Positions 44,639 through 47,600 of a stretch of 64,000 nucleotides of DNA are shown piece by piece. Under the pieces are notes generated by a model. It saw only the letters and a program-made list of their open reading frames with translations, had not been told where the DNA came from and ran no database searches. How positions within the stretch are numbered: the first letter of the stretch is position 1; each line of letters opens with the position of its first letter. Source of the DNA: Alphaproteobacteria bacterium. Lineage in GTDB: Bacteria > Pseudomonadota > Alphaproteobacteria > SP197. Where the stretch lies: contig OZ219747.1 of the NCBI GenBank assembly GCA_964291265.2, forward strand, positions 2,624,001 to 2,688,000. Direction: 5' to 3'. The translations under genes and the position numbers were made by a program.

Positions 44639-47600
44639 ATGGTCGAGGCCATGAAGACTTTTGCCGAGACGCGCGGAGCGACACAGCAGCTGACGGGAGG
44701 TGGTGACGGCCTATGTCGGGCGTCAGCGGCCTTGTCATGCGAGGCGCCTGACTGGCAGGCGCTCTACGAGGCGGAGCGGGTTCGTGCGGATGCGGCGGAA
44801 GCGCGTATGCGGTGTGCCAGCATCCATGTTTCCCGGCAAGGTTTTTTGCGGGTGTCCGTGGTGATGTTTTCTGTGGTTGTCCACAGCGGTCTGGGGTTCC
44901 GCCTTGTCGATGTTCTTGTCCTGCGAGCGAGGCGACATGCAGCTTGTGGTCCCGGCGGCATGGGCGGGTTGTTGTCCATTGATCATGGTAACGTTACCGG
45001 CGAGTGCGGTCGCTTTGCCGCCGGCGTTCCCGGACATGGTAACGTTACCGTGTTTGATGAAGTTCCAGGTGTCATGCGTCCCGGCGGCATGAGCGAGTTG
45101 CCGTCCATTGATCACGGTAACGTTACCGATGAGCGCGGCCACCTTGCCGCCCAGCGTCCCCGGGCATGGTAACGTTACCGTGATCAAGGGGGTTCCAGGT
45201 GTCATGTGTCCCGTCCGTAGCCGCGCGGCGGTTCGATCTCCTCGAGAGCCTCGATGTCGGCCTCGACGATGATCTGCAGACGTTCTCCGTAAGCCGTGTC
45301 GCGCAGGGAGTCGGGAAGACTGTCGAGACAGTCTCGATAATGCTCCTGCAATGCACCGAGCTCGGCCACCGCATCGCGCCAGCGTTGCGCACGGGAACGA
45401 CGGTCGCAGGGCTTTCGGTGGTGGACGGCAGGGATGCCGGCCTTGCGGCGTTCCCGATAACGGCGCTGCTTCTCGGCAGGGGTGAGGGCCATGAGGGTGT
45501 CTCCTTCGCTCACTCGCAAGGTCACGCCGGCGACCGTGCCGGTGCTTCGGGCGACCAGCAGCGCTGCTGTCGCAGCAAGGTGTTCGCCAGCACGATGAGC
45601 TTGCGCATCACGGCGACTATCGCGACCTTGTGGGCCTTGCCGGCGGTCTTGAGGCGCTCGAACACTCTTGCCAGGTCCGCGTTGAAGCGTGTCGCCGCGG
45701 TTGCGGCCATGAACAGGAGATCGCGTGGCCTTCTTCGCCCGCCTCGGATGTGCCGAGCACCGTGGTGCTGGCCGCTGTCGTTGGCCATCGGCGCCACCCC
45801 GATCAAGGCTGCCGCCTGACGGCGGTCGAGACTGCCGAGTTCGGGCATCCAGCAAAGAAGGGCCGCGGCGGTCACCGGACCGATACCGGGGATCGAGATC
45901 AGGATGCCGTACTTCTCGGCCTGCTCGGGATCACGGGCGATCACCGCTTTGATCTCCGCATTCAGCCCCTCAATCCGATCATCGAGATCGTCTGCCGAGG
46001 CCCTTGTGACGTTCTCGCCTTCGCCATCCACCTCATCTGCCACCTGCCTCAGCATGGTCCGCACGTCGACAAGCGCGGTACGCGCCACCAGGAGATCCTC
46101 CAGGTTGTTGAGGAAGGCATCCTGAGGAGCTACAGGCTCAAGATCGCCGAGCATCGTGCCGATCTTGGCCAGCATCAACGCGTCGACGCGGTCGGTCTTG
46201 GCCAGATGGCCCAACGCCTCGGCGAAGCGCCGGGCCCGCAACGGGTTGACCAGGACAACCTCGAAGCCCCGGTCATGAAGACACTGGTGAACCTTGCGGT
46301 GATAGCGACCTGTCGCCTCCATCACCACACGGGTCACCTTGAGGCTGCGAAGCCATGTGTTCAGCGCCCGCCAGCTCGTGGCGTCGTTCGCAAGACAATG
46401 CGTCTGGCCCTCCGCACAGATGTCCAGACTGGCCTTGCTGACATCAATCCCTGCTACTACCTTGCCCATCGTCCCTTGCTCCTCGCCTTATGATGATTCG
46501 GTTCAAACCCAGGCATCCATTCAGGACGCAAGGGACGCCAAGGGAGGTTGGCCGACCAAGCTGGCACACGGCTCCGTAAGGCCAAGGCGAAAACGGTCCG
46601 ACCAACCTCCGCGGAGATCGTTTGATCCCCGCACCCCGCTCCCCTGTGCTTGATCGCGCAGGGGAGCGGAATCTCTCTGCAACCATAGACCGGGCCCTCT
46701 CCCACAGTCGGGGTTGTCCACATTTTCCCGCCGCCAACCGCTGTGGATGATTGCATCATCACGGGGACAAAACCTGGTCATATAAGGCGAACTGGCGGAA
46801 GGTAGGGGGTGAAAGTCCCCTGGAACGAAGGAGTAACCAAACCACGTTTCTCCGCGAGCCGTGCGTCGGTTCCCGCGAGGGGGCAGGCGAAGCGTCGGTA
46901 GCGGTACGGATGGGCAGGGCTAATGAGCACCGAAAAAGCTATCATCCGGGGTGCCGAGGCTTTCGCATTGGTCGAAGGCAACATCGCAGGCATCGATTTG
47001 GTGAGATGTCGGCGAGCCCCGCGGTGTCAGAGAACCCATGCACGTCCGCACGCCTTCTGTTGGGACCCTGGGAGATCTTCAAACCGTCCCGCCGGTTGTG
47101 GCGGGACCGCATGGGGAAGGAGAAAACCGAAGCCTATGATGTACGGTTTGAAGAAGTCGGATGAGGCCGTAGTACCTGTGAAGGCGGCGAACAAGGAAGC
47201 GTTAGCTTCTGCGGAGTCGCTGGAGGAAAGGGCCTCAACCAAGGGGAATCCGGGACGCTAAAGCACGCACCGAACGCAGTGTCGGGCAAGCGTGCCACAG
47301 GCGGCGGATCGGATACGGGAAGCCGCAGGCTAGTCCAGTGGTTTGCCGTCCAGTACCCGAGGTAGGAGCCGGATGGATTAACGTCCACGTCCGGATCTGC
47401 GCGGGGGGTGCGCAGCAATGCGCATCCCTACCGCGTCTGACCTGCGCTGTGCGGAGATTGCTGCCCGTGCCCGTGCGGGCACATTCAAGTTTCATCTCGA
47501 CCGCACTCGTGATCAGCTCAAGGAGGCTCGCGCGGAGGTGCGGGCGGCTCGCCGGGAGGTGAAGCGGGTACAGGCCCTGGCGGAGGCGCTGGAGCGGGAA

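Follow-up and report, generated by a model that had tools for sequence, protein, structure and literature searches.

The 64,000-nucleotide (nt) stretch of an alphaproteobacterial genome analysed here (GenBank assembly GCA_964291265.2, contig OZ219747.1, positions 2,624,001 to 2,688,000; to be referred to as the window) contains an insertion sequence (IS) of the IS110 family whose predicted bridge RNA matches the first 14 bases of a group II intron. The recombinase of this element likely uses the many copies of the intron as programmed landing sites, a reading to which we give a probability of roughly 0.8, and the element is likely a parasite of another genetic parasite. Four layers are nested in the window: a hydantoinase B gene is interrupted by an IS66 element, the IS66 element by a group II intron that lacks an open reading frame (ORF), and the intron by the IS110 element. 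Positions are those of the window unless a contig is named.

Structure of the nested locus

The IS110 element is located at 44819–46786 on the minus strand (1968 bp from core to core, with a predicted circle of 1966 bp) and divides the 660-nt ORF-less intron between nt 9 and 10. Intron nt 1–9 (GTGTGCCAG), the left piece of the divided target, are at 44812–44820 on the plus strand, with the exon junction taken from empty IS66 copies. Intron nt 10–660 follow at 46787–47437 on the plus strand, matched by RF02005 at 46812–47036 and 100% identical to 13 intact copies. The cores are the AG dinucleotides at 44819–44820 and 46785–46786 (CT on the element strand). Filled and empty sites have only this AG/CT in common, giving a short core without target duplication. 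The 2-bp core had been recognized in a preliminary description of the locus, which placed the end of the element at 46794; this end is corrected here to 46786.

The left part of the IS66 element (44541–44811, plus strand; terminal repeat, Pfam) forms the 5′ exon, within the hydantoinase B gene, and the remainder, with the transposase (47438–49449, plus strand; PF03050, terminal repeat), forms the 3′ exon. The sequence CGCAT in the intron (46964–46968), which resembles exon-binding site 1 (EBS1), is complementary to ATGCG at the end of the 5′ exon (44807–44811). An EBS1-like loop also covaries with the exon end in introns of genomes G305 and G038.

The intron occurs in two forms, and their boundaries follow from IS66 exon junctions that are uninterrupted at other places in the genome (12 copies for the ORF-less junction and 16 for the junction of the form encoding a reverse transcriptase, RT). 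The ORF-less form is GTGTG...GTC, 660 nt, and the RT form is GTGTG...GAC, 1919 nt. RF02005 matches all four intron copies in the window, with 170 bits for the target intron. The ORF-less form ends in GUC rather than AY; the 5′ GUGYG, domain I, the domain V/VI end and the exon junction of a group II intron are all found in it. Its 15 near-identical copies (39383, 44812 and 60898 in the window) are at their own IS66 site, in sense orientation, and the RT form (42740 in the window) homes antisense at another IS66 site. The ORF-less intron is likely mobilised in trans.

The target as a multicopy site

The genome contains 15 ORF-less and 13 RT-encoding introns that are near-identical and of full length. 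Three unoccupied targets in the window, already listed in the preliminary description, were located by sequence search: at the 5′ end of an ORF-less intron copy (39383–39396, plus strand), at 60898–60911 in an intact 660-nt ORF-less intron (60898–61557, plus strand), and at 42727–42740 in an intact 1919-nt RT-encoding intron (40822–42740, minus strand; TIGR04416 above cut-off). In the 4.8-Mb genome as a whole, every one of the 27 empty perfect 14-mers marks the 5′ end of an intron, and the same is true of 27 of the 28 perfect 12-mers. Just 961 of the 4^12 possible AG-core 14-mers occur at least 20 times. The target is the 5′ strand of the domain I basal helix. Intron nt 6–10 pair with nt 290–294 in the fold, and compensatory changes are found in locus L001.

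In contigs from four sequencing runs, both the intron 5′ end and the exon junction are found in the empty state, with no circle joint among the matches listed. Contigs of one run (X3) join an intron 3′ end to an intron 5′ end. In G305 (L194, L204 and L207), intron copies are 730 and 1918 bp apart and their 5′ ends follow domain V/VI sequence, an arrangement that suggests introns inserting into introns.

The predicted bridge RNA

The 211-nt end upstream of the recombinase ORF folds with a z score of –7.2. It consists, on the minus strand, of two hairpins (46611–46672; fold, consensus and stem covariation), a target-binding loop (46543–46610; consensus fold, stem and guide/site covariation) and a donor-binding loop (46470–46537). 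The proposed layout of hairpin, target loop and donor loop is supported by the consensus fold, the covariation and the target census, except that there are two 5′ hairpins and not one.

The left guide of the target-binding loop is at 46585–46593, with the match TTCGCCT at 46585–46591, and the right guide (GTGTGCCAG) is at 46561–46569. In the donor-binding loop, the left guide (ATGGATGC) is at 46513–46520 and the right guide is at 46487–46494, including ATAAG at 46487–46491; both match the element's own ends. All four strings are at the positions first reported for them. Their placement in loops depends on the fold considered. The minimum free energy structure of the single sequence pairs part of the left target guide with the right target guide, whereas in the centroid and in a consensus of 12 sequences both target guides are unpaired, on two sides of an internal loop. 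The variable columns of this consensus are located in the guide loops. Its cells are paired in 97.9% of cases and 14 of them are compensatory, compared to 4.8 after shuffling, a control that related sequences can exceed.

The two target guides match intron nt 1–14, as originally proposed, although at nt 1–2 the agreement is in part a property of the scaffold: all 20 guide pairs have G as the first base of the right guide, and C or T as the second. This leaves a variable match of about 5+CT+5.

The predicted donor junction is ATGGATG-CT-TATAT. Its left half, ATGGATG, is at the right end of the element (44821–44827, minus strand; sequence), and the CT core with the right half, TATAT, is at the left end (46780–46786, minus strand; sequence and copy comparison). 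The predicted target for this junction is GTGTGCCAGGCGAA. The agreement between the donor loop and the predicted circle junction stands, and the ends covary with the guides, but the right donor guide extends beyond the ATAAG of the preliminary description: it can be read as AT(C)ATAAG, matching 7/7 with one bulge. In relatives, ATCATAAG occurs together with CTTATAT and ATCACAAG with CTTGTAT, each 7/7 with one bulged C; in L044, one of the 12 rows, the right donor guide does not match its own end. The handshake bases fit those of IS621, with donor G7 facing the C that follows the right target guide and target C7 facing the G that follows the right donor guide.

Covariation of guides and insertion sites

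The relatives comprise 54 loci, mostly from one genome with many decayed copies, together with genomes of the genus. Left ends were found for 52 elements, of which 46 were scored (five lacked a right end and one a target loop), giving 35 guide/site combinations, 20 distinct guide pairs and ten variable positions. The guides match their own sites at 7.9 of the ten positions on average, compared to 4.6 ± 0.36 for shuffled pairings, and none of 20000 shuffles reached as high a value. For the seven guide pairs from outside the dominant genome, the values are 8.4 and 3.9, respectively. The guide of the window element matches the intron site at 10/10 positions, and 33 sites of other elements at 6/10 or fewer. 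The bridge-RNA assignment is supported, as far as sequence comparison goes, with the covariation between guides and sites as the decisive test. In the dominant genome (L003–L054), the clade is represented by about 50 decayed copies. Short deletions are numerous in them, and there are several variants of the guide, each associated with a flank that recurs. Among 201 genomes searched, the left end of the element is present in 11, and 10 of these belong to the genus.

The recombinase

The recombinase (45522–46469, minus strand; 315 amino acids) contains PF01548 and PF02371 and scores above the cut-off of NF033542. Residues Asp9, Glu51, Asp93, Asp96 and Ser232 align with Asp11, Glu60, Asp102, Asp105 and Ser241 of IS621, so that the DEDD and Ser residues are intact, and all five are invariant across 24 homologues. 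The AG/CT core is the same in the 46 elements scored, including that of the window. In elements of the IS1111 group, the guides are carried by a long non-coding region downstream of the ORF (PMC11187229); in the window element they are upstream of the recombinase ORF. By the defining features tested, the element is an IS621-type bridge recombinase, and RNA-directed recombination is predicted for it.

Copies of the element in its genome

Four copies of the element, 100% identical and with differing flanks, are present in the genome. Three of them are between intron nt 9 and 10; of these, the window copy has entered an ORF-less intron and the two others RT-encoding ones. Such identity, with two copies at the same IS66 homing site, could be produced by passive copying, in which IS66 transposition or gene conversion multiplied one old insertion in an intron and the guide later came to fit its own flanks, for example to keep excising. 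This seems very unlikely to us. The intron that holds the window copy is the ORF-less one, and its IS66 site differs from that of the other two. The copies in the RT form are flanked by distinct IS66 alleles, with single-nucleotide polymorphisms (SNPs) on both sides (at 91 nt to the left and, to the right, about 60 nt past the intron), and the fourth copy reached a near-match independently. The two intron forms and the SNP-differing IS66 flanks require at least two, and probably three, insertion events, given that a split intron would be unlikely to home. They also support the proposal that targeting is independent of where the intron has homed, as the three occupied introns represent two forms at two different IS66 sites.

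An even less probable explanation is that the host favours the element as a switch or defence, since it inactivates an intron that is proliferating, together with the IS66 that carries it, both of which would be regained on excision. The 28 near-identical full-length introns and the division of a structural helix by the insertion would suit such a role. With 3 out of 30 sites occupied, however, the intron would not be held in check. The element is an autonomous IS of ordinary type that also has an off-target copy, and its relatives are degraded or scattered, like plain parasites.

There are traces of the element at other places. A 14-nt left-end remnant of a different IS110 allele adjoins nt 10 of a diverged intron copy, which suggests, from the sequence, an older use of the same spot in the intron. 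A 48-nt stretch at C2 3954259 was considered as a mini-element and rejected; its left part reads as an RT C-terminus (IRHPW motif), and only the 14-nt remnant is kept. In 8 of the 12 diverged intron 5′ ends examined, there is a deletion or substitution within nt 5–14, the target of the element, with C11T and small deletions among the changes, and few indels occur in the remaining aligned stretch. These ends are at C2 2242639, 1430307, 1455002, 1456212, 1375030 and 1565520 and at C1 226533 and 28482; three share a flank, which reduces the number of independent lesions. The lesions are possibly excision scars or escape changes. In addition, the last 58 nt of the left end are found inside a multicopy methylase-like repeat (C2 765723–765837 and about a dozen copies in C1 and C2), 114 nt from GCC-AG-CAT, a mimic of the right junction; no empty site was found. 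This piece may be a remnant or, alternatively, a mini-element.

Relatives with guides that match other sites

Elements of the clade are found at other positions in group II introns. In G010, which like G004 belongs to the genus, the relative is located at the end of the RT ORF and the start of domain V, with Pfam RVT_1 on one side and RF00029 from the core onwards on the other (33.5 bits, E value 0.009, below the gathering score). Its guide matches its own site at 10/10 positions, and all seven empty perfect sites in G010 are at the same RT-linked intron end. A relative in G004 (83% identical) has inserted in two of the three RF02005 introns of that genome (9/10), at what we take, from the AAGTCRGA motif, to be the domain II/III junction, and has a third copy elsewhere; its exact predicted target (10/10) is found in an intron fragment of the window's genome. 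A second element of G004 is in intron domain I in one of its five copies (9/10), and its remaining sites are scattered.

In G004, one intron copy (L268; G004:C1:1143500–1148400) has been invaded by two different IS110 relatives, one in domain I and the other where domains II and III meet. The single copy in G005 is also inside an intron, but its guide matches at just 6/10 positions (Watson-Crick), and it was not counted as a programmed insertion. The reverse nesting is seen as well, with group II introns inside the recombinase ORF of IS110 relatives (L126:1915 in G010 and L001:1319–3140).

Three elements (one in G015 and two in G010) have unreadable guides and were left out of the count of guide types. 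Of the 11 readable types in the genus, 5 have a copy in the ribozyme part of an intron. Compared with 17.9 kb of intron DNA, 3 of the 11 guides reach 10/10 (2 of 660 shuffled guides) and 5 reach at least 9/10 (26 of 660), all antisense; this intron set was partly drawn from the same loci and is not independent. In 13 plasmid introns gathered independently, the guides of G004, G010 and one of G002 match at 8/10 or better in 7, 9 and 9 introns, respectively, and 8 of 440 shuffled guides reach 7 or more introns. The match of the G010 guide in the plasmid introns is at a different site from the one occupied in G010.

Weight of the evidence

Several observations count against programmed use of the intron. 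Only 3 of the 30 perfect intron sites are occupied. The fourth copy is not in an intron but in a methylase-like gene belonging to another repeat, of which 16 copies are empty. Copies at unrelated sites would contradict guidance, and this copy is the only one of the four outside introns, yet its site is an 8/10 near-match to the guide. Insertions in selfish DNA survive better, which inflates the apparent occupancy of introns. Introns with the same 5′ end are present in G305 (63 pattern matches), G038, G186 and G273, with any match in 20 of 401 genomes of the class, and G305, G038 and G186 have only weak matches to the IS110 clade of the window (weak fragments in G305). The 13 plasmid introns, which are related, mostly begin with GTGCGCCGGGAGACC, and the window guide does not match their 5′ ends (mean best match 6.85, null median 6.38). 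The conserved ribozyme 5′ end of the preliminary description is therefore conserved within this one intron lineage and not across group II introns. For six of the 11 guide types, no copy was seen inside an intron; scanned flanks of guide types outside introns include an IS5 transposase, SRAP, MTTB, GMC and unnamed genes. The six guides tested for it have no perfect empty site in their own genome, which indicates that promiscuity is frequent in the clade and that a guide can exist without a target dedicated to it.

These points lend themselves to another account, in which the drifting guide of a promiscuous clade happens to match an abundant repeat, and survivor bias does the rest, without selection for introns. 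In the genome, 6% of the AG-core positions (29,927/489,821) are within words of at least 20 copies, and the G004 element with scattered sites also landed in an intron once. Against this stand the perfect matches of 3 of the 11 guides in the non-independent intron set and, in the independent plasmid introns, the three guides with matches in 7 or more introns, a level reached by 8 of 440 shuffled guides. We regard chance with survivor bias as unlikely, although less so than the two explanations considered above, and retain the programmed use of intron copies as the likely reading.

Searches further afield gave negative results. At 53 other loci with close recombinases there is no intron at the element end (in L001 the intron runs into the IS ORF instead), and the flanking ORFs mostly have no Pfam match, the targets being recurrent and unnamed. 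A metagenome pattern joining the intron 5′ end to the right end gave 42 matches, none with an IS110 or RT, which we attribute to chance. Among viral sequences, none of 18 pattern matches to the right guide has the recombinase, and 14 viral loci with recombinases 42–47% identical have no intron or RT match. In the 401 genomes of the class, GAAGTCAGATTCGG has three matches, two of which are not introns, so that the motif is not widespread in its exact form.

A broader reading is that this IS110 lineage is specialised on group II introns, its guide having been reprogrammed at least three times, perhaps five, onto conserved ribozyme motifs, always antisense: the 5′ basal helix, the domain II/III junction, the start of domain V and two sites in domain I or II. 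The lesions in the targets of older introns may then be escape changes or excision scars. We hold this reading tentatively, at somewhat short of an even chance. Of the 9 inner branches in a 12-row recombinase tree, 2 are supported, which does not decide on a common ancestor of the intron-matched guides. If the lineage is so specialised, an arms race between RNA guides and ribozymes would be recorded in one bacterial genus.

Proposed mechanism of insertion

By analogy with IS621, the element would be excised as a circle of 1966 bp, and the joined ends would create a promoter together with the donor ATGGATG-CT-TATAT. The right end carries TTGCCG, and 17 nt after it a TATGAC arises only once the ends are joined (TTGCCG-N17-TATGAC); this junction is a predicted promoter of the circle. 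The donor loop would read the junction, and the target loop, through the match described above, would read TTCGC-CT-GGCACAC, the antisense of intron nt 1–14. A tetramer of the recombinase would then exchange strands at the CT core. In the product, the 5′ strand of the domain I basal helix would be interrupted by 2 kb of DNA running antisense to the intron, as is seen in the window. Judging from the fold, splicing and homing of that intron copy would be blocked, and the surrounding IS66 transposase would stay split. Insertion would cost the host little for these reasons. The guide has likely been selected for the intron because it offers about 30 identical and dispensable sites in selfish DNA, renewed by homing and with a sequence held by RNA structure. 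Specificity is loose, and near-matches are therefore used as well.

Other features of the element and the window

A passenger ORF of 96 amino acids, unassigned in function, overlaps the 3′ region of the recombinase ORF (45202–45492, minus strand; translation). It has no NCBIfam match, and a 217-residue frame containing it has no Pfam match. Other elements in the genome carry copies of it, about 79% identical, in over 40 places, among them 57400–57750 in the window. The right non-coding end has 129-bp-spaced repeats (44949–45213) with four GGTAACGTTACC palindromes; similar palindromes are kept in the relatives L001, L288 and L291. The IS66 copies of the window (38760–39382, 44541–51049 and 60640–60897) break genes that include hydantoinase B and the end of a cation/proton antiporter, and near them are an IS21 element (54325–56516) and a UPF0236-type transposase (49661–51049).

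Comparison with known systems

Among elements that target other mobile DNA, IS1383, to go by a title, reportedly inserts into the repeats of IS1384. Targets in mobile DNA are described for the IS1111 group: the inverted repeats of Tn21 for IS4321/IS5075, attC for ISKpn4/ISPst6, and repetitive extragenic palindromic (REP) sequences for ISPa11 (PMC11187229). What the window element has in common with these is its predicted RNA-guided insertion into another element, at a part that is conserved and multicopy. It differs in that their targets are DNA recombination or repeat sites, while its own is conserved through the structure of a ribozyme RNA; in addition, its sister guides match different ribozyme domains and its non-coding end is 5′. 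The insertions of ISPpu10 are likewise at identical copies of one multicopy sequence, but that target is an intergenic REP with a DNA stem-loop gate (10.64898/2026.03.19.712850). An intron and an IS are also nested in the case of RmInt1 and ISRm2011-2 (PMC4496777), and the window intron homes to IS66; there the intron invades the IS, whereas here the IS is guided into the intron.

Known target classes of the IS110 and IS1111 groups are REP, attC and transposon inverted repeats (PMC11208160, PMC11187229). Searches of the open literature returned no title or abstract opening that reports an IS110 guided into group II introns, and large target tables or ISfinder notes may hold unlabelled cases. 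The word "intron" occurs 0 times in the accessible main text of PMC11208160, PMC11187229, 10.64898/2026.08.14.744561, 10.64898/2026.03.19.712850 and PMC13604230, and has no relevant match in the portions covered of the supplements of PMC11208160 and PMC11187229. In the covered parts of 10.64898/2026.10.21.760802, introns occur only as an RNA class.

The closest system is IS621 (PMC11208160, PMC11208158), for which a discontiguous right donor guide and handshake bases have been described. Both elements have the RuvC-like DEDD and Tnp serine residues, a non-coding left end upstream of the ORF, a hairpin followed by target and donor loops, the CT core in all four guides, a discontiguous right donor guide and the handshake bases. 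They differ in the target, a group II intron here and REP in IS621, and the window element has a longer right target guide (7 nt beyond the core match), a 315-nt left end, two 5′ hairpins, and the passenger ORF and repeats in its right end. The mechanism is known, being that of IS621, while the target class is apparently new and recurs in the clade; the surprise is ecological and evolutionary rather than biochemical. How bridge-RNA guides acquire their specificity in nature is an open question in the field. This clade offers at least 20 guide pairs on one scaffold with one donor, three of which match distinct positions in group II introns, and guide evolution and target choice are directly testable because each pair stands beside its own insertion sites. 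To REP, attC and transposon ends as target classes, ribozymes would be added, and a loop would be closed: introns home into insertion sequences, and an insertion sequence is guided into introns.

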